IMG/VR virus record: IMGVR_UViG_3300030207_000331
Location: 1-38,679 of that record
From: a virus
Lineage: Duplodnaviria > Caudoviricetes
Strand: one strand, 5' to 3'
DNA length: 38,679 nucleotides
Part shown: piece after piece, positions 214-33,473 of the stretch
How positions within the stretch are numbered: the stretch's first letter is position 1
Layout of the letters: every line of letters begins with the position of its first letter
Translations under genes and position numbers: made by a program
Notes under the pieces: model-generated
The model's input: the letters and a program-made list of their open reading frames with translations, nothing else
What the model was told of the DNA's origin: nothing
Database searches by the model: none

Positions 214-268
214 TTCTGATATTGAGATGTGTATCTCAACTGATGACTAGAAAACTATGAAATCAGAA
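214..268 (+). ncRNA. Type III hammerhead ribozyme 1 (predicted cleavage after A221, AUA triplet)
   Basis: Stem III TTCTGAT/ATCAGAA; stem I TTGAGAT-GTGT-ATCTCAA; core CTGATGA 240-246; stem II (C)TAG-AAAA-CTA(T); core GAAA 259-262. Confidence 0.85.
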
Positions 269-294
269 CTCATTTTATTTTTTTGGAGAAAAAT

Positions 295-1260
295 ATGAAT
301 AACGAAAATGTAAATACTTTATCTGAAAATGCTACTTTGGTGCGTTTGAATACCAAACATCCAAGTGGAGTTAAATCAGATAAGGATTTAAAAGAAGGTC
401 TAGCGATAGATCAATCTGCAATGAGTGAATCTTTGCACGTTGCTAAATACATCTTTGGAAAAGAGACTAATAAATACTTTAGAAGAATTATTAATCAATT
501 CAGAAACAATGTTTATTATCCTTTGACTGTTCCATGGGATGACAATACTAGCGACTACGAAGGCAAGGTCTTGAGTGGGTGGCGTTTATGCCCTAACCAA
601 GAACTTGATACTCTTATGGATAAAGTTAACGAAGCTAAGAGTGATTTTGAGAAAGAAGTAAAAAACTTTCTTGATAATTACGACAACTTGATTGATGCGA
701 ACAGGCATAAATTAGGTCAAGCTTTTAAGCTATCTGACTATCCAACTAAAGAAGTCATTGAGACTAAATTCAGATTTGATTTTGAGTTAGGACAAGTGCC
801 AACTATTAGTAAAAGTGATGTGCGATTAAATGTATCAGAATCACTTAGAAAGAAGATTGAGCAAGATGCAATTAAGAGAGCTAACAAGAATGTAGAAGCT
901 ATTACTAGAACTACAGTAGAAACTCTTTTGGAATCCGTTGATCACCTAGCAGAAAAGTTAAAGTCTTATGATCCTAACAATAAGCAAGGTGGTGGATTCT
1001 TTAAGAACTCTAGTTTTAATAAGCTTAGACAATTTCTTGATACGCTACCATCTATCAATAATGATATTTTGGGTAATGACAAACTGATTGCTGATGCTCA
1101 TCAAAAATTAGTTAGCGTGTTTGCTTCTATTAATGATGTAGATTCTTTGAGAGAAGATGATGATTATTCTGCTAAGAAACGAAAACAAATAGCAGATGAT
1201 CTTGAAAATTCTGTTGATGAATTGAAGGGTGGATTCTTAGACAATATGTATAAGAAGTAA
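295..1260 (+). CDS. DUF3150-like protein
   Basis: ATG at 295 follows GGAG at 285-288. Helical protein with YYPLTVPW, FLDNYDNLI and DYPTKEVIETKFRFDF motifs typical of this phage/ICE family. Confidence 0.65.
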   Translation: MNNENVNTLSENATLVRLNTKHPSGVKSDKDLKEGLAIDQSAMSESLHVAKYIFGKETNKYFRRIINQFRNNVYYPLTVPWDDNTSDYEGKVLSGWRLCPNQELDTLMDKVNEAKSDFEKEVKNFLDNYDNLIDANRHKLGQAFKLSDYPTKEVIETKFRFDFELGQVPTISKSDVRLNVSESLRKKIEQDAIKRANKNVEAITRTTVETLLESVDHLAEKLKSYDPNNKQGGGFFKNSSFNKLRQFLDTLPSINNDILGNDKLIADAHQKLVSVFASINDVDSLREDDDYSAKKRKQIADDLENSVDELKGGFLDNMYKK

Positions 1261-1267
1261 GCCAATA

Positions 1268-1316
1268 AAGGGTGGAGAAAATATATTATTTACCAGTAAA
1301 TATTCTTTCCATCCTT
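1268..1316 (+). other. Long hairpin upstream of hammerhead 2
   Basis: AAGGGTGGAGAAAATATATTATT / AGTAAATATTCTTTCCATCCTT forms a ~21 bp imperfect stem. Confidence 0.7.
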
Positions 1317-1367
1317 CTGTCTTTGGATGTGTATCCAAACTGATGAGATCAAAAGATCGAAACAGAA
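1315..1367 (+). ncRNA. Type III hammerhead ribozyme 2 (predicted cleavage after C1321, GUC triplet)
   Basis: Canonical fold: TTCTGT-C-TTTGGAT-GTGT-ATCCAAA-CTGATGA-GATC-AAAA-GATC-GAA-ACAGAA. All three stems pair perfectly. Confidence 0.95.
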
Positions 1368-1396
1368 ACTCATAAAAAATCTTTGGAGGGATTATT

Positions 1397-2698
1397 ATGA
1401 ATAGTGAAAAACGAATAATTAAAGCTAGATCGAAACTAATGAAAGGTAATGTAGGTATGGCAACTATGCTATTAAAACTCACCTTAATTAGAGAAGATGA
1501 AAAGTGTCAAACAATGGCTACTGATGGCGTTAATATTTATTGGAATGATGAATTTGTTAAATCAATAACAGATGAGGAAATTCAAGCAGTATTAATTCAC
1601 GAAGCTAGTCACGTTATTTGGGAACATCCTTTGCGTAAGGGTAAGCGAGATCACCAACTTTGGAACATAGCAACAGACTATGTAATCAATGGGTGGTTAA
1701 AGTATGACTTGCATATGGAACTTCCTGAAGATGGTCTGCTTGATCGCAAGTATCATGGGATGTCTGCTGAAGCAGTTTATAGAACTCTTAGCAACGATGA
1801 TGAAGCTTTAGATGAAGCAATAGATCAGATTAATGACAATGCCAACGATGGTGATGCAGATCAATCTGCTGAAGATGGTGAGACAAGCAATAGCAACGAA
1901 GGTCAAACTCTTGCTGAGAAACTTGCTGACTTACCTCAATTAAGTGGTGAGGTTTGGGTGCCAACTAATGAAGATGGCAAAGAATTATCACCTAATGAAA
2001 TGGCTGAACTACAAGAAGAATTGCAACGAACAATAATGATGGCTGATAAGCTTGAAGGTATTGGAGACGATGCAGAAAGTAGTTTGGGTAAAGCAGTCAA
2101 GCAGATGAATAGATCATGCGTTGATTGGGTTGATGTGATGCGAGACTTCTTACAGTCTGCTATGTCAAAAAATCCTACATGGTCAAGACTTAACAAACGT
2201 CACTCATGGCGTGGTGTTAATTTACCTAGCAACGATAAAGAGCCACATGGAGGTGAGATTGTTGTTGCAATTGATACAAGTGGGAGTGTGACACAAGAAG
2301 AACTTAATATTTTTGCTACTGAAACACAGAACTTAGCTGAAGAATGTGGAGTAGATAAAGTTAGAGTTTGTTATTGCGATACTAGAGTTCATAAAAATTC
2401 ACATGGTGAGTGGTGGGATGAATACGACTTAGAATGTGAAGAACTTGAATTTCATCTTCGTGGTGGTGGTGGTACTGACTTCAATCCACCTTTCAACTTA
2501 TTCAACGACTATACAGATAATACAGATGATGTCCTTGCATTTATCTATTTTACTGATGGAGGTGGATATGTTGATAAGGAGGTTGAGCCAAATGTCCCTG
2601 TTATATGGGCATTAACCACAACTTACTATCAAGACTACTATAACGATATGACTTTTCCTTTTGGAGAAGAAGTAGTTATAGATATGTCTAGTATTTAA
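1397..2698 (+). CDS. HEXXH metallopeptidase + VWA domain protein (DUF2201-like)
   Basis: TMATDG, HEASH zinc motif, WNIATDYVIN, acidic linker, MIDAS DTSGS, GGGGTDF, YFTDG; RBS GGAGG. Confidence 0.88.
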   Translation: MNSEKRIIKARSKLMKGNVGMATMLLKLTLIREDEKCQTMATDGVNIYWNDEFVKSITDEEIQAVLIHEASHVIWEHPLRKGKRDHQLWNIATDYVINGWLKYDLHMELPEDGLLDRKYHGMSAEAVYRTLSNDDEALDEAIDQINDNANDGDADQSAEDGETSNSNEGQTLAEKLADLPQLSGEVWVPTNEDGKELSPNEMAELQEELQRTIMMADKLEGIGDDAESSLGKAVKQMNRSCVDWVDVMRDFLQSAMSKNPTWSRLNKRHSWRGVNLPSNDKEPHGGEIVVAIDTSGSVTQEELNIFATETQNLAEECGVDKVRVCYCDTRVHKNSHGEWWDEYDLECEELEFHLRGGGGTDFNPPFNLFNDYTDNTDDVLAFIYFTDGGGYVDKEVEPNVPVIWALTTTYYQDYYNDMTFPFGEEVVIDMSSI

Positions 2699-2800: not shown

Positions 2801-2859
2801 AAACTGTATAGGAAATGCGTATTTCCTACTGATGATCGCCAAAAGGCGTGAAACAGTTT
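2801..2859 (+). ncRNA. Type III hammerhead ribozyme 3 (predicted cleavage after A2808, GUA triplet)
   Basis: AAACTGT-A-TAGGAAAT-GCGT-ATTTCCTA-CTGATGA-(T)CGCC-AAAA-GGCG(T)-GAA-ACAGTTT. Confidence 0.88.
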
Positions 2860-2895
2860 AATAACTCTTATTAATGCTTTGGAGGGCAAAATATT

Positions 2896-3141
2896 ATGAG
2901 TAAATTTAAAAAAGAATATGTTTACAAAGTAAGCGAACATTGTATTGATGTTAGATACTTTGAGATAGTTTCTGATAAAAAACTTTCACATAACGAAGTG
3001 ATAGATGCTATATGTTTACCTGATATTTCAAAAGAGGGAGACGCAAAAAAAGAAGGTGGAATTACATCAACTTTTATGTGGACTGACTTTGGAGAAACAA
3101 CAGATGTAAAAATCTTGGGAGAACTTAAAGATGACGAATAG
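2896..3141 (+). CDS. Hypothetical phage protein
   Basis: 81 aa ORF with a GGAGG RBS directly downstream of hammerhead 3. Confidence 0.7.
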   Translation: MSKFKKEYVYKVSEHCIDVRYFEIVSDKKLSHNEVIDAICLPDISKEGDAKKEGGITSTFMWTDFGETTDVKILGELKDDE

Positions 3142-3404: not shown

Positions 3405-3449
3405 AAGGCGTGATGCTACTGTAAAAGGTGGTGTCACGCCTTTTTTTTT
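3405..3449 (+). terminator. Rho-independent terminator of the ribozyme operon
   Basis: AAGGCGTGATGCTACT-loop-GGTGGTGTCACGCC followed by T9. Confidence 0.85.
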
Positions 3450-3574
3450 GGTCTAAAAAAAGCCAACAAGCTCATCAGATTCCGATCCAATGAAAAAATA
3501 TTTACTAGTCTATTGTTTTTCCTGAGAAAAAATCTACCAGTCCAAAATAGAAAAATATTTACTGGTTTTTTCGG

Positions 3575-3609: not shown

Positions 3610-3638
3610 TTGCAATCTGCAATCAGTTATATTATATT
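3610..3638 (+). promoter_or_regulatory. sigma70-like promoter for candidate sRNA
   Basis: TTGCAA-17 bp-TATATT. Confidence 0.55.
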
Positions 3639-3644
3639 GATAAT

Positions 3645-3743
3645 CAAGATTTGATTTCTGTCTTATTGGCAAAATTCATTTTTATATTACCTCCAAAAAC
3701 TATGTGAGTTTTAGGGACAATCGCAAGGTTGTCCCTTTTTTTT
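3645..3743 (+). ncRNA. Candidate ~100 nt sRNA with anti-SD/anti-AUG seed
   Basis: Bounded by a promoter and an intrinsic terminator, with no convincing sense ORF. Contains ATTCATTTTTATATTACCTCCAAAAA. Confidence 0.55.
3713..3743 (+). terminator. Rho-independent terminator
   Basis: AGGGACAATC-GCAA-GGTTGTCCCT (GNRA loop) followed by a T run. Confidence 0.85.
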
Positions 3744-3784: not shown

Positions 3785-3815
3785 ATTTCACTTTGATAGC
3801 ATTTTGCATTACAAT
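3785..3815 (+). promoter_or_regulatory. Promoter/operator, copy 1 of a 31-bp repeat
   Basis: TTCACT-17 bp-TACAAT, ending 7 nt before ATG 3823; 27/31 identical to 37013-37043 (- strand). Confidence 0.6.
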
Positions 3816-3822
3816 ATCATCC

Positions 3823-4140
3823 ATGTACGCTGTAATTAGACACACATATAAACTAGATATACCTGAGCCAAACAATGTTTATTCAACAAAGTCTAGTGCT
3901 AAGTGGGTGCATTTAGTTTGGTTGTTTGAAACTGAACTAGATGCTATTGCTTTTGCTATATCTTTGTTAGATGATCCTTTGATTATGTCAAATAAATGGC
4001 TGATTGAGGGTGCCATAAAACAATTAGAGGAAGATAGGTTTTATCAAGTTGGTAGAGAAAGTGTAGCTATTGCAGAAGTGCAAGATAGTCCAAACATATT
4101 TTATACAGGAGAAAAGGAAGATGAAAAGTCTATTCATTAG
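3823..4140 (+). CDS. Hypothetical protein (probably leaderless)
   Basis: ORF track starts at 3781, but ATG 3823 coincides with the predicted +1 and has no SD. Confidence 0.65.
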   Translation: MYAVIRHTYKLDIPEPNNVYSTKSSAKWVHLVWLFETELDAIAFAISLLDDPLIMSNKWLIEGAIKQLEEDRFYQVGRESVAIAEVQDSPNIFYTGEKEDEKSIH

Positions 4141-4384
4141 ATGCTCAGAAGAAACCTATGAATTGGCACACTCTTTGGCTAAGAAGGAAAATCGCTCATT
4201 GAATAAGCAGATTATCCATATGATACATAGCGAAGCTGATAACAAAAACATATCTATAGAAGAAGATCAAGCTGAACAGGATGGTAAAGCTATCTATAGT
4301 GGTGCTATCACTAGCGAAAACTATGAATCTAAACTTGGTTTGCGAGGGATTGCTGAAACAAAGAAACAGGATTCTTATGATTAA
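4121..4384 (+). CDS. Arc/CopG-like ribbon-helix-helix transcriptional regulator
   Basis: MKSLFIRCSEETYELAHSLAKKENRSLNKQIIHMI fits the beta-strand plus A..ENRSLN..I Arc signature; purine-rich RBS before ATG 4121. Confidence 0.8.
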   Translation: MKSLFIRCSEETYELAHSLAKKENRSLNKQIIHMIHSEADNKNISIEEDQAEQDGKAIYSGAITSENYESKLGLRGIAETKKQDSYD

Positions 4385-4859
4385 GATACCAAAAAGTTAG
4401 TAGTGCATTAGAACATTCTTGCATTACTAACTCTTTTGTTTCATCTATCTTCTTTGGATTGTTCACCATAATACTCCAAAACTCTTTCTCTTTGGTATGT
4501 CCACACTCCCTTACAATTTTCTTTTGCACCTTTGATAGCATGACTGCCCTTGGAACAGGCTTGATAGAACTATGACTGGTAAATATTCTTTCTGCAGCAG
4601 GTGAGCTTTTCCCCAATGCACCACTTCTAACTATGATTTCAAGATACTTATTGCAAACATTATGCTGTTGTGCGTTTATCTTATTCTCTATAAATGATTT
4701 GTCTATGATGTGTTGGTCAAAAACAATGGCTCTACCCACCTTGCTTTTACCTATTCTTGTAATAGCGACTGAGTTTCTATGATGTAGATAAGGACTTCCT
4801 ATATCATTGACTTGCAATTCGTTAGAACTCCCAATCAAAGTTATCTTCGACTTCTTCAA
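4329..4859 (-). CDS. Hypothetical phage protein downstream of primase-helicase
   Basis: 176 aa ORF overlapping the 3' end of the primase-helicase gene. Confidence 0.65.
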   Translation of the reverse strand: MKKSKITLIGSSNELQVNDIGSPYLHHRNSVAITRIGKSKVGRAIVFDQHIIDKSFIENKINAQQHNVCNKYLEIIVRSGALGKSSPAAERIFTSHSSIKPVPRAVMLSKVQKKIVRECGHTKEKEFWSIMVNNPKKIDETKELVMQECSNALLTFWYLNHKNPVSLFQQSLANQV

Positions 4860-6591
4860 TTTCTGCGTACCTTCCGTTAACAGGATTGAAGGTCATATTA
4901 ACACTTCCTAACTTACCTTGCCAACCCCAACGAGCCTTCCAATTGTGTATTTCTACGCCATCGTCACCTCTATAGACTGTTAAACCTGTGTCTGCTTTAC
5001 TAAACCACGCATAAGATTTAGCTACATCAACACCTGTGCATACATTTTTCTTGCCATCTCTAATGAAAGGTTTAGTTGGATGTGCCACAAAGAATACCAA
5101 TATATCGTGTTGTTTAGCGAACAGTTGGACTTTTGTTAGCATTTCACTAACCATATCAGTCTCTAATCCTGTATGTTCAGTATGTATAAAGTTAAATGGA
5201 TCAATAACTAATACTCTCACTCCATATCGCATGACTGCACTTGCACCTTTCTCTAAGATAGCTTCTATCGTAGGCAACCCACCATCTTGATAATCTTGAA
5301 ACAGTATATGTTCTCTTATCCATGTCTCAGCAAAGTCTTTTTCTTCTTGTGTCATTCTAGTATTCTGACCCTCAAAGAATGGCTTACCTGTAAGGATTTG
5401 AGATAGCTGAACTGCATGAAGTTGAACTGGTTTTTCAAACGAACAAAAACAAGTTTTCCAACCATGATTCCTTGCTACATTGACCACAAGTTGATCTATA
5501 AATGCTGACTTGCCATCTCCTGCATGACCTGTAGTAACAACAAGATTGCCCGTAGATAAAGTAAATATCTCATCAACACTTGCAAACCCTGTTGATACAC
5601 CACTTGGCATACCTTTTTCATACAAGCTTTGGAACTCATCTGCGTAGTGATCTAGGTTATTTAAACCATGTAAAGGTATTGGCTGTGCGTTGATTATGGA
5701 ATCTCTTAGCTTTTCTGCACCATACTTAATCAGCACATCATTTGCATCCTTGCAATCAAAGTTATCAACCCTATAACATCTAGCTTTGTTAAGTCTCCTT
5801 GACAATTCATCAGCTAATATGTTGCCATTTTCATCTGAATCTGTGCATAGAATTATCTTTTCTACACCCTCAAACTTATCCCTTTCATTCCATACATACT
5901 TAAACCTTCCATCTTCGCTTGGATCAATCTTGTTATCTGTGATCTTGTTTGGTGCACCATTGGGAACTGAATAACAATCTACATTCATTACGCCTTCAAA
6001 AGCAGTCTTGATCGCAAGTGTGTCCATTTCTCCTTCTGTTATAACTATTGTGCTTTCTAATGTTGGCAATTTGCTATCATATACCTGTTGACCCCAAAGC
6101 TTTTGTGCGTTCCCATCCCACCAAAAACTCTTGCTTCCATTGGCACTCCTATACTTGACTGCTTCTACCTCATCACCCTGCATGAAAGAAAAACCAATGA
6201 CTGGTTTATTATTTTTTTGCGTCTGGATGACACCCGCTGTATTTGAGGCTGTGATGCTTATACCTCTAGCTTCTAACCATTTACTAGCTTCACCACCCTC
6301 TATCTTCTTTGGCATTTCTACTGGTTTCTTTTCTTCTTTTTTTATTGGTTTCATTTTTATCTCCTCTCTTATTGGCACAAGTCCGTTAGTTCCACAATGA
6401 TGACAATGATATACAACCTTTTCATCATCAATATTTACTGATAAAGGCGTGTCATGTTTGTTCTTTGTTCGCTCTCTTTGACATTGAAAGCAAGTTATTT
6501 TGTGTTGCCCAATCCTCATACCACTTGTTCTTGATTGGCTGTTGATATGATTTAATATATCTCTTTTATCCATTTCGCTATTGACATACAT
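4822..6591 (-). CDS. Twinkle/T7 gp4-like DNA primase-helicase
   Basis: Zn finger CFQC...CHHC; TOPRIM ITEGEMD, SVPNGA, DSDENG, KDAND; SF4 helicase GHAGDGKS, SFE, VIDPFN, VAHPTK; RBS GGAGG. Confidence 0.93.
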   Translation of the reverse strand: MYVNSEMDKRDILNHINSQSRTSGMRIGQHKITCFQCQRERTKNKHDTPLSVNIDDEKVVYHCHHCGTNGLVPIREEIKMKPIKKEEKKPVEMPKKIEGGEASKWLEARGISITASNTAGVIQTQKNNKPVIGFSFMQGDEVEAVKYRSANGSKSFWWDGNAQKLWGQQVYDSKLPTLESTIVITEGEMDTLAIKTAFEGVMNVDCYSVPNGAPNKITDNKIDPSEDGRFKYVWNERDKFEGVEKIILCTDSDENGNILADELSRRLNKARCYRVDNFDCKDANDVLIKYGAEKLRDSIINAQPIPLHGLNNLDHYADEFQSLYEKGMPSGVSTGFASVDEIFTLSTGNLVVTTGHAGDGKSAFIDQLVVNVARNHGWKTCFCSFEKPVQLHAVQLSQILTGKPFFEGQNTRMTQEEKDFAETWIREHILFQDYQDGGLPTIEAILEKGASAVMRYGVRVLVIDPFNFIHTEHTGLETDMVSEMLTKVQLFAKQHDILVFFVAHPTKPFIRDGKKNVCTGVDVAKSYAWFSKADTGLTVYRGDDGVEIHNWKARWGWQGKLGSVNMTFNPVNGRYAEIEEVEDNFDWEF

Positions 6592-6600
6592 AAAACCTCC

Positions 6601-6673
6601 TATAGTATGTATATACTTACTATGTAGTTAATACTACTTAATATTAAATATAGTAAGTATCTACTTACTATAC
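6601..6673. repeat. Very AT-rich tract with direct/inverted TACTTACTA repeats (candidate origin)
   Basis: TACTTACTAT at 6614 and 6662, inverted TAGTAAGTA at 6651; lies immediately upstream of the primase-helicase gene. Confidence 0.4.
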
Positions 6674-7010: not shown

Positions 7011-7163
7011 AAGTTTGATGTTGCTAAGAAGGTTAGCAGAAAATGTGGATAGCTATTAAAGTATAAATCCAGTTTGCTTGAAATAAAGCATATGAACAAC
7101 GCCTTCTAGCACTTCACAGACTTTGCTAGTATTTTAAACTGTGAATAATCAAGTAAACTAGCA
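7011..7163 (+). ncRNA. Candidate structured leader/ncRNA
   Basis: GATGTTGCTAAGAAGGT pairs with GCCTTCTAGCACTTC, enclosing GCAGA..TGGAT/ATCCA..TTTGC. A second stem is TGCTAGT/ACTAGCA (7124-7163). Confidence 0.4.
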
Positions 7164-9601: not shown

Positions 9602-9901
9602 ATGTACGACAATAAAAACCAAAGTGATGGAGCAATCTACACTAATAATTTTAAGAAAACTGAAAAGCAACCAGACTGGACAGGTAAAGTTGAGTTGAGT
9701 AGGGATATGCTTAAAGAGTTAGTCACCATTATTAAAAATGGTGGCACAGGTGAACTAAGAGTAGCTTTGTGGAATAGAACTTCTAAGAATGGCAACGAAT
9801 ACAAGTATGCTAGATTAGATATACCACAAAAGAAAGAGGAGCCAGTTGTTGATTCTAATCAAGAAGAAGAAACTTTTGGCGAAGATGATATTCCATTTTA
9901 G
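9602..9901 (+). CDS. ssb: Single-stranded DNA-binding protein
   Basis: KQPDWTG motif, acidic tail ending DDIPF, position after the annealase gene. Confidence 0.75.
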   Translation: MYDNKNQSDGAIYTNNFKKTEKQPDWTGKVELSRDMLKELVTIIKNGGTGELRVALWNRTSKNGNEYKYARLDIPQKKEEPVVDSNQEEETFGEDDIPF

Positions 9902-11530: not shown

Positions 11531-11610
11531 CACTAGTGGTAATGTTGGAATAGGAACAAAGTGCCGTATAAAAATAAAATATTTACCAGTATATTGTTTT
11601 TAGAGGCTCT

Positions 11611-12003
11611 ATGAAGATTGATTTACCTTTAGAGGTTTACTACACAAAGAATAAGAAATTTATCTTGAACTTGAATAACTATCGCAACGCACATTATAGG
11701 GTGTTAGCTAGTGCCAAAAAGATTTATGCAGAAAATTTAGTTGATAGGATTAGCCATCCTATGTATGAGGAGCCTGTGATACTAACCTATACATACTACG
11801 CCAAAACCAAGAGAAGGTTAGATGTTAGTAATCCTTGCTCTATTATTGATAAGTTTACTTGTGATGCATTAGTTAAAGCGAATGTGTTAGAGGATGATAG
11901 TTTTAAACAGATCAAAGAAGTGATCTATAAATTTGGTGGGATTGATAAAGACAATCCTAGATGTGAATTGGTAATCGCAGCCGTTAGCTGCAGCATAAAA
12001 TAA
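11611..12003 (+). CDS. rusA: RusA-like Holliday junction resolvase
   Basis: RRLDVSN...KFTCDALV...LEDDS catalytic pattern, NPRCEL. Confidence 0.85.
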   Translation: MKIDLPLEVYYTKNKKFILNLNNYRNAHYRVLASAKKIYAENLVDRISHPMYEEPVILTYTYYAKTKRRLDVSNPCSIIDKFTCDALVKANVLEDDSFKQIKEVIYKFGGIDKDNPRCELVIAAVSCSIK

Positions 12004-12035
12004 TATTTACCAGTCTATTGTAATCGGGGGAGAAA

Positions 12036-29975: not shown

Positions 29976-31718
29976 CTACCTTAATGTATATATAGCTAAT
30001 TTATGTTTTTTGCCTTTTACAGATATTGGTTTTAGTAATTTTAACTTAAAACTACAATGTTTTTTAGTGTTATGACCTATGATTAAATCAACACCTACAT
30101 CTTTGGTAGCACTTTCAAGTCTAGCTGCTGTATTTACAGCGTCACCTATTGCACTATAATCAAAGCGTGTATCACTTCCCATATTACCTATTATCGCTTC
30201 TCCTGAGTTTACCCCTATACCTATGTCTATTCCTAGATTGGCTTGCTCCATATCTGCCTGTATTTTCTGTGCTGCTAATATGGCTTTATTCTCATGCTCT
30301 TTTAAATCTATAGGTGCATTAAATATAGCCATCATCGCATCACCTATATACTTATCTACCATACCACCATACTCTTTTACTGCATTAGCTTGTATAGTTA
30401 AAGCTCTGTTCATAATATGAGTAACTTCTTCTGGCTCTAGTTTTTCTGATAAAGATGTAAAACCACGAACATCTGTAAATAAAAAAGTGCAATACTTTCT
30501 TTCACCACCTAGTTTTAATAAGTCAGGATTATCTTGTAATTGTTTTACTTGTCTAGGATCAAGATAATGCTCAAACTGTTTTTTAATTTCTTGTCTAAGC
30601 TTATATTGTTCTCTAAATCGTAAGTAAAAAGCTATAGAAGCAGTTATAAATTGTGATATTAAAGTCCAACTAACATCTACAAGTATTCCACGCTGTATTA
30701 AATAGTATCCAGAAAATATTGTTAATAAAAATAATAGACTGGTAAATGTTATTCCTAGCGTTATTCCAAAAATATTTATTAAAAACCAGACAAATGTTAC
30801 TGTTATCACTAGAATTAATAATTCAACAGCTAAATGCCAGTCAGGAATATAAGGACTATCTTGTATTAAAATAGATTCTGCTAATGCAGCTTGTATCTTA
30901 TGTGGCTCTAATAAACCTACAGGTGTTGCTATCTGAGGCATTACTCCACTTGCAGTAACTCCAACAATAACAAACTTACCATTAACATTCATTTCTTGTA
31001 AATCTGTTTGTGGTGTATCTACCCAACTAATCCACTTACGACCCAAAGTATCTGTTTTAACTGATGGTATTCCTCGTATTGATATTTCCTCTATACCATT
31101 ATCACTAGTTTTTATAATGTATGTTTTAACATCAAATATTGATTTATATATTTGTGTGCCAAAACTAGGAATCCATTGATTTTCTGGAGTTTTAACTAAA
31201 AGAGGTATTCTTCTTACAAGTTGATCTACTTCAGTGGGAGCAATGGCTAAACCCTGCAATGTATTATCTGTAAGAGTGTTCAGGTTTTCCTTAACTCCCA
31301 AACTTACTATACCACCATTATCTTCGCCTTTCACTACTGTCCCTGTAGGTTTAGGATAATTACCTTTACCATCCTCAAACATAGCTATTACTGAAGGTGC
31401 ATAACCAAGCGATCTAGCAAAATCTTTATCACCACCAAATCTATCAGCTTGTGGAAATGATATTGCCCAACCAACTCCTATAGCACCTTTAGCTAATAAC
31501 TCTATATTTATTTCTGCAAGTCTTTGTCTTGGCAAAGGATAACCACCTTCAACCTCTACATCTTCTTCAGTTATATTTAATATTACAAAGTTTCCTGATG
31601 GTTCTGGTGTTTTTATAAAAGTGTCATACACTCTAAGTTTTAATATTTCTGTTGGCGTTGACTGATATATTAATGGCAATAACAATAATATAACTATAGG
31701 TAATATTAGTTTTTTCAT
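29976..31718 (-). CDS. CHASE2-domain class III adenylate/guanylate cyclase
   Basis: N-terminal TM; CHASE2 (GGYPLPR, VRRIPL); 3 TM; FLFTDVRGFT, DKYIGDAMMAIF, GIGVNSG, GNMGS..RFDYSAIGDAVNTAARLES. Confidence 0.92.
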   Translation of the reverse strand: MKKLILPIVILLLLPLIYQSTPTEILKLRVYDTFIKTPEPSGNFVILNITEEDVEVEGGYPLPRQRLAEINIELLAKGAIGVGWAISFPQADRFGGDKDFARSLGYAPSVIAMFEDGKGNYPKPTGTVVKGEDNGGIVSLGVKENLNTLTDNTLQGLAIAPTEVDQLVRRIPLLVKTPENQWIPSFGTQIYKSIFDVKTYIIKTSDNGIEEISIRGIPSVKTDTLGRKWISWVDTPQTDLQEMNVNGKFVIVGVTASGVMPQIATPVGLLEPHKIQAALAESILIQDSPYIPDWHLAVELLILVITVTFVWFLINIFGITLGITFTSLLFLLTIFSGYYLIQRGILVDVSWTLISQFITASIAFYLRFREQYKLRQEIKKQFEHYLDPRQVKQLQDNPDLLKLGGERKYCTFLFTDVRGFTSLSEKLEPEEVTHIMNRALTIQANAVKEYGGMVDKYIGDAMMAIFNAPIDLKEHENKAILAAQKIQADMEQANLGIDIGIGVNSGEAIIGNMGSDTRFDYSAIGDAVNTAARLESATKDVGVDLIIGHNTKKHCSFKLKLLKPISVKGKKHKLAIYTLR

Positions 31719-32839
31719 TAGCTTTCCTGTTTAATTCTTATAACACTACTACTACCACCATTTATCTTAATAGTTCTTGAAACACCATCTTGTATTAAAA
31801 TTACTGTATAGCTACCATCTGAATCTATATCAACTCTTGCTGTATTATTTACACTTCTTAATATCGTAAGTTTTTCACCTGTAATAAAAGTAGTAATCTG
31901 AGTGTCTAAATCTTGACCAAATCTAGTTCCTGCAATAGCTATAGATGATACATCTGCTTGTAATTGATCTTGTTCTTCTTGTATATTTAATTCATCAAGA
32001 ACATCTAATAAATCTTCTAAAAAATTAACATCTAAATAATTAATATCAAGTTCAGTAAATTCTAAATCAGCTTCATTATCTAAAAAATCTTCTTCTAAAT
32101 AATCTATATCAAGATCATTAAAATCTAAAATAGTATTTGACTGTGCAACAACTTCTTCTTGTTTTAATTCTTTTTCTTCGGGTGGTGATACTATTAATAT
32201 GTTATCAATTAAATCAAGAGATAAATCTAATACTACTGGTTTACTTGGTGCATTTTCAAATACAGATACAGTAGTAGCTTCAAAAGGTTTATTTAGTATG
32301 ACACTTCCTGTTGCTGTTATTACCTCTATTTCTCCACTAGATAATCCATATTGATCTGGTAAAAGTATTATTAATGATTCACCTAATTCATTTACTGTAG
32401 CTGTAAAGTCTGTTCCTCTAATAGCTATATTAGCAGTAGGAGTTTTTAAAGATATATTCTTTTTATTAAGTTTATCTATATTCCCAGAAATAAATCTAGT
32501 TGTTCCAATAGCAAATGTAAGTGCCATTTTAGATTTGCTTGGGTCTGGATCATATATATACTCGTCTATTAACAGTTGACTATGTTCTGTAAGTCTAACT
32601 GTAGAATCATCAAGAAATGTTATAGCCATACGACCATTAGAAGTTATGGCTTCATCATTGCTTTGTATATCAAAATCTACAAAAGCATCTAAGGGTTTAT
32701 CCCTTACTATTTGTGCATTACCTCTTAGTTCAGATATGTCTCCAATATTAACATCCTGTGGTTGTGCCTTGATCGTCTTGAACGACACAAATATTGGAAT
32801 TAGAAGTATTGCTAATAATTTTAAGATAATCCCTTGCAA
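31718..32839 (-). CDS. FecR-domain periplasmic protein (start uncertain)
   Basis: Signal-like N-terminus, ITFLDDSTVRLTEHS, TPTANIAIRGTDF, acidic C-terminal half. Confidence 0.8.
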   Translation of the reverse strand: MQGIILKLLAILLIPIFVSFKTIKAQPQDVNIGDISELRGNAQIVRDKPLDAFVDFDIQSNDEAITSNGRMAITFLDDSTVRLTEHSQLLIDEYIYDPDPSKSKMALTFAIGTTRFISGNIDKLNKKNISLKTPTANIAIRGTDFTATVNELGESLIILLPDQYGLSSGEIEVITATGSVILNKPFEATTVSVFENAPSKPVVLDLSLDLIDNILIVSPPEEKELKQEEVVAQSNTILDFNDLDIDYLEEDFLDNEADLEFTELDINYLDVNFLEDLLDVLDELNIQEEQDQLQADVSSIAIAGTRFGQDLDTQITTFITGEKLTILRSVNNTARVDIDSDGSYTVILIQDGVSRTIKINGGSSSVIRIKQES

Positions 32840-33473
32840 GTGTAGATGATTGCGTAATATCAATATCATTTGAACTCCCATCTAAATCTAAGTAAAAATA
32901 TCCAGAATCAGCAGATGTTGTTCCTGAATAACCACTAGCTGTAAAATCTATCGCATTTGAACTTCCATTAATATCAAGATAATTTATGGCATTCTCGTAA
33001 TCTATATCAAAATCAAGAACATTGCTGTCACCCAAGATAACCCAGTCTAAATCAAGATAAGAAGAATCAGCATTTTCTGCTATAGCTAAATCAAATTCAT
33101 TGCTTGAACCTGTAACATCAATATTAAGATTTACATAATCAGCACTTATAAGACCTGTGCTATTCATAAGTATATCCATAATATTAGAGTCACCATTCCA
33201 CTCAAAATACCCAGTAAAGTTATCACCATCAATAGCATCTGATCTAAATATGTTAGAACTACCTATCTGATTAATGTCAAGTGTCATTGACACACCATCA
33301 AGGTCTAAAGCAGTCATTGTTCCAGATGTAGCTTGTGTTCCACCTATTAAGTTTGATGACCCAAGTTGTTCTAAATCAATAGCAGCTGAATTTCCTGACT
33401 GATCTACATATATTTCATTATCTGCAAAAACAGACAATGATAAAAATAAAAAAACATTTAATAATTTATTCAT
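32748..33473 (-). CDS. Curlin-repeat (CsgA/B-like) secreted protein
   Basis: Signal peptide plus repeats of x-D/N-x-Q/x-G-x-S-N (IYVDQSG, LEQLGSSN, INQIGSSN, DVTGSSN, DINGSSN, DLDGSSN). Confidence 0.75.
   Translation of the reverse strand: MNKLLNVFLFLSLSVFADNEIYVDQSGNSAAIDLEQLGSSNLIGGTQATSGTMTALDLDGVSMTLDINQIGSSNIFRSDAIDGDNFTGYFEWNGDSNIMDILMNSTGLISADYVNLNIDVTGSSNEFDLAIAENADSSYLDLDWVILGDSNVLDFDIDYENAINYLDINGSSNAIDFTASGYSGTTSADSGYFYLDLDGSSNDIDITQSSTLARDYLKIISNTSNSNICVVQDDQGTTTGC

Follow-up and report, generated by a model that had tools for sequence, protein, structure and literature searches.

The window analyzed here, a stretch of 38,679 bases, is an entire virus record and opens inside a gene for an AAA ATPase. 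A relative with an identical DUF2201 protein (L001) extends the sequence to the terminase genes. The rightward operon at the start of the window contains, in order, the genes for the AAA ATPase, DUF3150 and DUF2201 proteins and two small ORFs, and its place and gene content suggested that it is an early operon. Hammerhead-like RNAs were found before three of its genes (Table 1). All three had the CUGANGA and GAAA core, an NUH site and three stems and were considered to be putative ribozymes; the first pair of stem II was a mismatch in two of them, and searches of Rfam detected no match for those in the window. A longer variant was present before the AAA ATPase gene at positions 2700 to 2808 of L001, upstream of the window start.

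A small RNA unit with a promoter-like site and terminator of its own sits behind the 3405-3450 terminator. The first-pass annotation of this DNA had proposed that the unit encodes a trans-acting small RNA, antisense to the translation starts of the ribozyme-led genes. Its sequence strings, reverse complement, coordinates and gene starts (295, 1397 and 2896) were all right as written, with CCTCCAAAAA at 3690-3699 and ATTCAT at 3674-3679 being confirmed in the letters. Both of the signals that it described were also found, namely a promoter of the form TTGCAA-17-TATATT and a GNRA-capped terminator consisting of a 10-pair stem (3713-3736) with a GCAA loop followed by a T-run. As a scan of the window detected no more promoter-like matches than were found in shuffled sequences (32 versus 33.3), the promoter is supported by conservation and not by the scan; of 57 distinct units, 49 retained the pattern, with two of these probably being mis-called. 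Transcription would start near 3645. The + strand of the unit folded better than shuffled sequences (z of −3.6, chiefly due to the terminator), while folding of the − strand was not better than that of shuffles (z of −1.6). The + strand was further supported by two relatives, L095 and L223, in which a second structured RNA module, located on the sense strand elsewhere, lies inside the unit in the same orientation. No match to the unit was detected in a search of the whole window with Rfam at the gathering score, and the nine weak matches for the unit at E values up to 5 did not include c4.

Table 1. Positions, strands and supporting evidence for the predicted RNA elements and target regions of the window
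Feature	Position	Strand	Basis
Hammerhead-like RNA (type III) preceding DUF3150 gene; cleavage predicted after 221	214-268	+	Core and stems by sequence
Predicted target leader of DUF3150 gene; AGAACUCA block, SD in hairpin loop, ATG at 295	265-297	+	Pairing, co-variation
Hammerhead-like RNA (type III) preceding DUF2201 gene; cleavage predicted after 1321	1315-1367	+	Core and stems by sequence
Predicted target leader of DUF2201 gene (start 1397); best match in window	1363-1399	+	Pairing
Hammerhead-like RNA (type III) preceding 81-aa ORF; cleavage predicted after 2808	2801-2859	+	Core and stems by sequence
Predicted target leader of 81-aa ORF (start 2896); weaker, rank 5 of 46, cofold −8.2	2863-2898	+	Pairing
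Terminator ending the early operon, parting it from the small RNA gene	3405-3450	+	Sequence scan
Sigma-70-type promoter, TTGCAA-17-TATATT	3610-3638	+	Sequence scan; conservation in relatives
Predicted small RNA gene, ~99 nt	3645-3743	+	Folding, synteny, conserved signals
5′ hairpin, bearing accessory anti-AUG AUUCAU (3674-3679)	3647-3683	+	Folding, comparison
Seed CCUCCAAA, complementary to UUUGGAG(G) of leaders	3690-3697	+	Predicted mostly unpaired (P, 0.84)
Middle hairpin; second block UGAGUUUU (3705-3712) on loop and 3′ strand	3696-3712	+	Folding, pairing, co-variation
Intrinsic terminator, GCAA loop, 8 T	3713-3743	+	Sequence scan; pair changes in aligned units
Primase-helicase start region; predicted further target without ribozyme, rank 3 of 46	6589-6629	−	Pairing, co-variation

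Conservation was investigated by synteny, using the downstream 105-aa gene as an anchor. Among 122 loci with at least 250 nt of upstream DNA, a number that includes redundant copies, a fixed rule detected the unit upstream of this gene in 104 (47 distinct). Of the 18 loci missed by this rule, 13 were regained with a relaxed rule and 2 by eye, while no unit was seen before the gene in the remaining 3 (L119, L130 and L131) or, among 120 further loci, in L162, L246 and L257. Two loci with a visible unit (L115 and L117) and one false clade J leader were left out of the analysis. A tree of the 105-aa anchor protein defined 16 clades, and the unit was present at the same genomic place across all of them. 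The conserved parts were the promoter pattern, a CCUCC string, usually a downstream AGUU block, and the terminator. CCUCC was the only near-invariant string of letters and occurred once per unit, usually between hairpins. The 5′ hairpin was free to vary in both sequence and length, such that the 5′ part ranged from ~16 to >130 nt across the family, and the second block was absent from five clade B units. Two-sided changes were observed in seven of the eight consensus pairs of the terminator among 22 aligned units. The predicted probability of the seed being unpaired had a median of 0.82 over 49 units, with values of 0.35 to 0.42 in clade E. Window DNA was present in four marine DNA runs; no DNA match was detected in the GenBank phage collection, where only ~30% relatives of the AAA ATPase were found, and a host and prophage search of genome contigs gave 21 candidate stretches, none of which was a relative. 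At the level of sequence comparison, these analyses confirmed that the predicted unit is a real and conserved feature of a family of uncultured marine phages.

Pairing of the small RNA with translation starts was examined using computed energies, which are model values that ignore kissing geometry. The mean energy of the duplexes with the three ribozyme-led leaders was −23.4 kcal/mol, as compared to −15.5 kcal/mol when CCUCC was fixed and the flanks were shuffled (5/2000), and hence the match to these leaders exceeds chance. With CCUCC fixed, pairing was as good in 0 of 2,000 trials when the 3′ flank was shuffled but in 515 of 2,000 when the 5′ flank, on the anti-AUG side, was shuffled. Among 46 starts in the window, the three leaders ranked 1, 2 and 5, with the primase-helicase and Sak starts occupying ranks 3 and 4, respectively. 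Net predicted binding was −15.7, −15.5 and −8.2 kcal/mol for the three leaders, −15.2 kcal/mol for the AAA ATPase and −13.3 kcal/mol for the primase-helicase, as compared to −5.0 to −5.7 kcal/mol for three strong-SD controls; Sak (−13.7 kcal/mol) and the start at 3131 (−11.4 kcal/mol) were less clean cases. Computed pairing with the AAA ATPase leader of L001 was also good. Across 16 loci, mean pairing was −20.3 for 36 ribozyme-led starts and −14.9 for 189 other GGAG starts. The predicted duplex spans the SD with 8 to 9 pairs, and a second block, UGAGUUUU, is complementary to an AAACUCA stretch upstream of the target SDs. This block had been missed by the first-pass annotation, as had a primase-helicase target and the location of the SD within the loop of a target hairpin. 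An SD in a hairpin loop closed by at least three Watson-Crick pairs was found in 146 of 171 early starts versus 79 of 312 downstream starts, and one closed by at least four such pairs in 127 of 171 versus 43 of 312. The stems of these hairpins change while the loop stays, most often as UUGGAG, the complement of CUCCAA. Both the spacer and the SD's 3′ end lie within the hairpin, which would be opened by pairing with the small RNA.

Co-variation between the small RNA and the leaders was examined by clade. For the ribozyme-led leaders of the 16 clades, cognate duplexes averaged −21.0 kcal/mol and non-cognate duplexes −15.8 kcal/mol, a difference reached in none of 100,000 permutations, although these values are optimistic as the clades share ancestry and the permutations overstate their independence. 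After centring, the cognate seed was the best in 11 of 16 clades but fell to rank 5 in clade C and rank 4 in clade F. The SD flank (8.3 versus 6.6 nt for cognate and non-cognate, respectively) and the second block (6.5 versus 5.0 nt) were each significant alone. The match was limited to these two blocks, with the linker being at background; in the SD region, the co-varying positions were the two letters before GGAG and the three after GGAGG. Several clades were represented by just one to three leaders. To control for a style common to the whole phage, GGAG starts located downstream were also analyzed; these had a z of −2.0, compared to −7.2 for the ribozyme-led starts. Downstream starts with a full GGAGG did, however, co-vary (z of −4.1), indicating that part of the signal reaches beyond the early operon. 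A gene-by-gene test of 13 genes, each with 7 to 16 clades, detected co-variation for the AAA ATPase (z of −5.7), DUF3150 (−6.8), primase-helicase (−4.9) and DUF2201 (−3.1) genes and for a 99-aa gene at 9602 (−3.6), presumed to be an SSB from its place in spite of having no family match. No co-variation was detected in the other eight genes (p of 0.06 to 0.84). As these flat controls come from the same clades, they argue against ancestry alone as the cause of the signal.

A held-out set was assembled from the 120 further loci, of which 109 extended far enough upstream and 87 matched the rule. Some of these matches were spurious, and five rows that had caught a coding CCTCC were excluded. Six groups were formed, with hand-picked leaders, and two of these (L241 and L199) lie near clades of the first analysis. 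When ranked among 22 seeds, the groups' own seed reached 1, 1, 2, 2, 3 and 2 after centring and 5, 1, 3, 2, 8 and 2 in raw values, the ranks of 5 and 8 being those of the L201 and L241 groups. The L201 seed has lost a C, whereas UGGAGG is retained in the leaders, so that pairing requires a bulge; the predicted UGAGG leaders were not found in this group. Perfect second blocks of 13 and 12 nt were present in L141 and L201, respectively. In an analysis of G-U asymmetry as a sign of pairing at the RNA level, wobble-type changes made up 0.23 of the mismatches in cognate pairs and 0.20 in non-cognate pairs. The architecture, conservation and co-variation of the predicted small RNA and the predicted accessibility of its seed were established by comparison of sequences, and its covering of the SDs of ribozyme-led genes in trans is a well-supported prediction.

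These results bear unequally on the two parts of the original proposal, in which the small RNA would occlude both SD and AUG. The predicted occlusion of the SD was supported by the clade-specific co-variation. The AUG part was weak, given the outcome of shuffling the 5′ flank and the detection of UUCAU at start-codon spacing in only 6 of the 16 clades (A to D, J and one unit of O). A first sign that the anti-AUG stretch is not general was the failure of an early search pattern, which demanded an upstream CAT, to catch a distant clade. As the stretch is limited to these clades, it may be an accessory at best, and in some clades only.

An alternative reading of the same letters, also raised in the first-pass annotation, is that the functional element is a translated minus-strand mini-ORF of 11 codons (3679-3644). 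This frame is present as written and in the window has a good SD, spacing and ATG, with an ATG at 4 to 12 nt from the SD also occurring in 30 of 57 units, spread over 9 of 16 clades. Such an ATG was, however, absent from the other 27 units and 7 clades, and where it was present the frames varied from 2 to >100 codons with no common peptide; in a close relative (L006), a frameshift reduces the frame to 6 codons. The mini-ORF was therefore rejected, and a function for the peptide is extremely improbable. It is also quite improbable that the unit represents an inverted leader copy whose similarity is maintained by recombination, or that it is a decoy of the sense strand, produced by read-through from the leftward genes, that would sequester a protein binding to UUGGAG hairpins. 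The reverse complement of the unit does resemble a leader, the leftward genes are directed towards it and a 3-pair stem around the SD is possible in 20 of 41 reverse complements. A 4-pair SD stem, however, was found in just 7 of these 41, as compared to 127 of 171 real leaders; promoter and terminator were conserved only on the + strand, no part of a hammerhead was copied, identity was confined to the two blocks and the primase-helicase start co-varies although it is far from the repeats.

More closely related to the antisense reading is a generic anti-SD RNA, which would mimic the 3′ tail of 16S rRNA and either damp messages with strong SDs, mainly those of the host, or titrate a host factor, the matches to phage leaders being a by-product. 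This explanation would account for CCUCC being the sole near-invariant string, for the cognate signal at downstream GGAGG starts and for the short clade B units, which are barely more than seed and terminator; C-rich anti-SD RNAs with many targets are, moreover, described in the available text of PMC4615179. Three genes of the window with strong SDs (37739, 8699 and 9602) nevertheless paired poorly with the small RNA (−9.6 to −10.7), the second block tracks clade-specific leader letters over up to 13 nt and the eight matched genes showed no co-variation, such that a generic function is unlikely. Pairing with the leaders could alternatively stabilize or activate the messages, as might occur if the SD hairpin were opened or ribozyme-cut 5′ ends were shielded. 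While opening of the hairpin is the predicted consequence of pairing, the 8 to 9 pairs of the predicted duplex cover the SD itself, which by established mechanism would exclude the 30S subunit, and activation is considered to be very unlikely.

The preferred reading is that the unit specifies a stand-alone antisense repressor that acts in trans on multiple targets among the early and replication genes of the phage, a prediction that is probably correct. It has the attributes of a trans-acting base-pairing small RNA, namely its own promoter, an intrinsic terminator, no conserved ORF and a conserved seed predicted to be accessible. In such a mechanism, the host sigma-70 polymerase would transcribe the small RNA from the + strand promoter, and first contact would be made between its seed and the UUGGAG loop of the target hairpin. 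The AGUU block would then zip onto the upstream AACU stretch, covering the SD, with loss of 30S binding and a block in translation of the early genes and the primase-helicase. The small RNA would accumulate through infection and damp early messages already divided by hammerhead cleavage into pieces of one gene each. Messages with ribozyme-cut 5′-OH ends may persist for long periods and would require an active means of shut-off. Families for tyrosine integrases, resolvases and ParA (PF00589, PF00239 and PF13614) were absent from all five complete relatives, and hence a role in timing or dosage control during lytic growth is considered likelier than one in prophage immunity. A broader and doubtful extension is that this one small RNA is a master brake, silencing ribozyme-cut early messages together with that of the primase-helicase in phages that have no integrase, so as to set the switch from early functions to replication, capping genome copy number in the manner of plasmid antisense RNAs and mediating sequence-specific exclusion of phages from the same clade, with the seed and the hairpins that bear the SD loop evolving together as lock and key.

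Several known systems share features with the unit. The c4 antisense RNA of P1 and P7 is described, in the available text of PMC12197685, as binding to complementary regions around the ribosome-binding site of a phage mRNA and blocking translation, with a sequence specificity that separates related phages. The small RNA is likewise predicted, from pairing and co-variation, to act in trans around a ribosome-binding site. Unlike c4, it did not match the Rfam c4 model and has several predicted targets, the early ones of which lie behind hammerheads; these encode an AAA ATPase, DUF3150 and DUF2201 proteins and a primase-helicase in phages whose complete relatives lacked the integrase, resolvase and ParA families, whereas c4 acts on an antirepressor message of temperate phages. 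The cuckoo small RNAs of Alphaproteobacteria, as far as they are described in the available text of PMC4615179, are similarly stand-alone, with stems that vary and an anti-SD motif rich in C. They have two to four hairpins with CCUCCUCCC loops, whereas the small RNA has a second block matched to phage leaders. With one CCUCC and no CCUCCUCCC loops per unit, identity with the cuckoo RNAs was rejected. The YUNR motif is a scaffold for the first contact between sense and antisense RNAs in plasmid and toxin systems (PMC3834814, available text); the UUGG of the target loop fits this motif, while the AUGGAG or GGAGGU loops of some clades do not. An antisense block of replication-gene translation, predicted here, is known for RNAII of pMV158 (PMC4485353). 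Those plasmid and toxin antisense RNAs are encoded in cis and have one fully complementary target, whereas the small RNA would act in trans through short blocks.

Clustered hammerheads flank single genes in prophages and in the early genes of HF1 and HF2, and the available text of PMC3088659 and PMC6765202 states that their purpose, and the reason for their location before phage early genes, is unknown. The hammerhead-like RNAs of the window resemble those in these reports in that a single polycistronic early transcript contains several of them, located shortly before start codons. They differ in having a predicted antisense partner; neither "antisense" nor "small RNA" is mentioned in the available main text of PMC3088659. 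No description of the small RNA was found in the literature searched, which covered few subscription papers, and the supplement of PMC5737381 may hold a ribozyme-gene-linked motif. A co-evolving antisense RNA aimed at hammerhead-led leaders makes the question of hammerhead purpose testable with reporters and suggests a protein-free shut-off of early genes, and the clade-specific pairs of RNA and leader could serve as orthogonal translation switches. One relative (L207) lacks the AAA-DUF3150 operon and has a different early module with repeated leaders and a hammerhead core before only 1 of 14 upstream ORFs. The small RNA unit is retained in this phage, where its 5′ part is long, and matches the phage's own repeated UUUUGGAG leaders. 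As unit and matching leaders are retained with almost no hammerhead cores, the small RNA may be an older and more general part of the system than the hammerheads.

Other elements were detected in the vicinity. The half-palindrome AATATTTACYRGT occurs at 188-200, 1285-1304, 3497-3509, 3554-3566, 4575-4587, 11578-11590 and 12002-12014, with 14 matches at up to one mismatch in the window versus 0.7 expected; the repeats are mostly intergenic, in both orientations, and are also present in relatives, and from this distribution they are likely to be a protein-binding site. TGCWATC repeats (3611-3624 and 3795-3801) lie in the promoter spacer of the small RNA gene in most clades and, reversed, in the next promoter. 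They were not enriched across the window (18 versus 12.7) and are a possible operator. The 105-aa gene, for which only unnamed viral look-alikes were found, has its ATG (3823) directly behind a promoter-like site (3793-3825) with no SD; it is probably leaderless and would thus be beyond the reach of an anti-SD RNA. The N-terminus of an 87-aa ORF (4121-4384) may resemble that of ribbon-helix-helix repressors, for which Pfam, PHROG and PDB gave no support. Short AGTAAGTAT-like repeats, kept in many relatives, are located at 6600-6660 upstream of the primase-helicase start and may be an origin or operator. Ahead of the rightward replication operon, a conserved structured RNA module with a possible pseudoknot is present on the + strand at 7028-7106. 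Modules of this type lie inside the small RNA unit of L095 and L223 and occur twice in L046; there was no Rfam family for the module, which may represent a ribozyme or a leader element not yet catalogued. Among the late genes, a gene with CHASE2 and adenylate/guanylate cyclase domains (29976-32881, − strand) adjoins a gene with a FecR domain.
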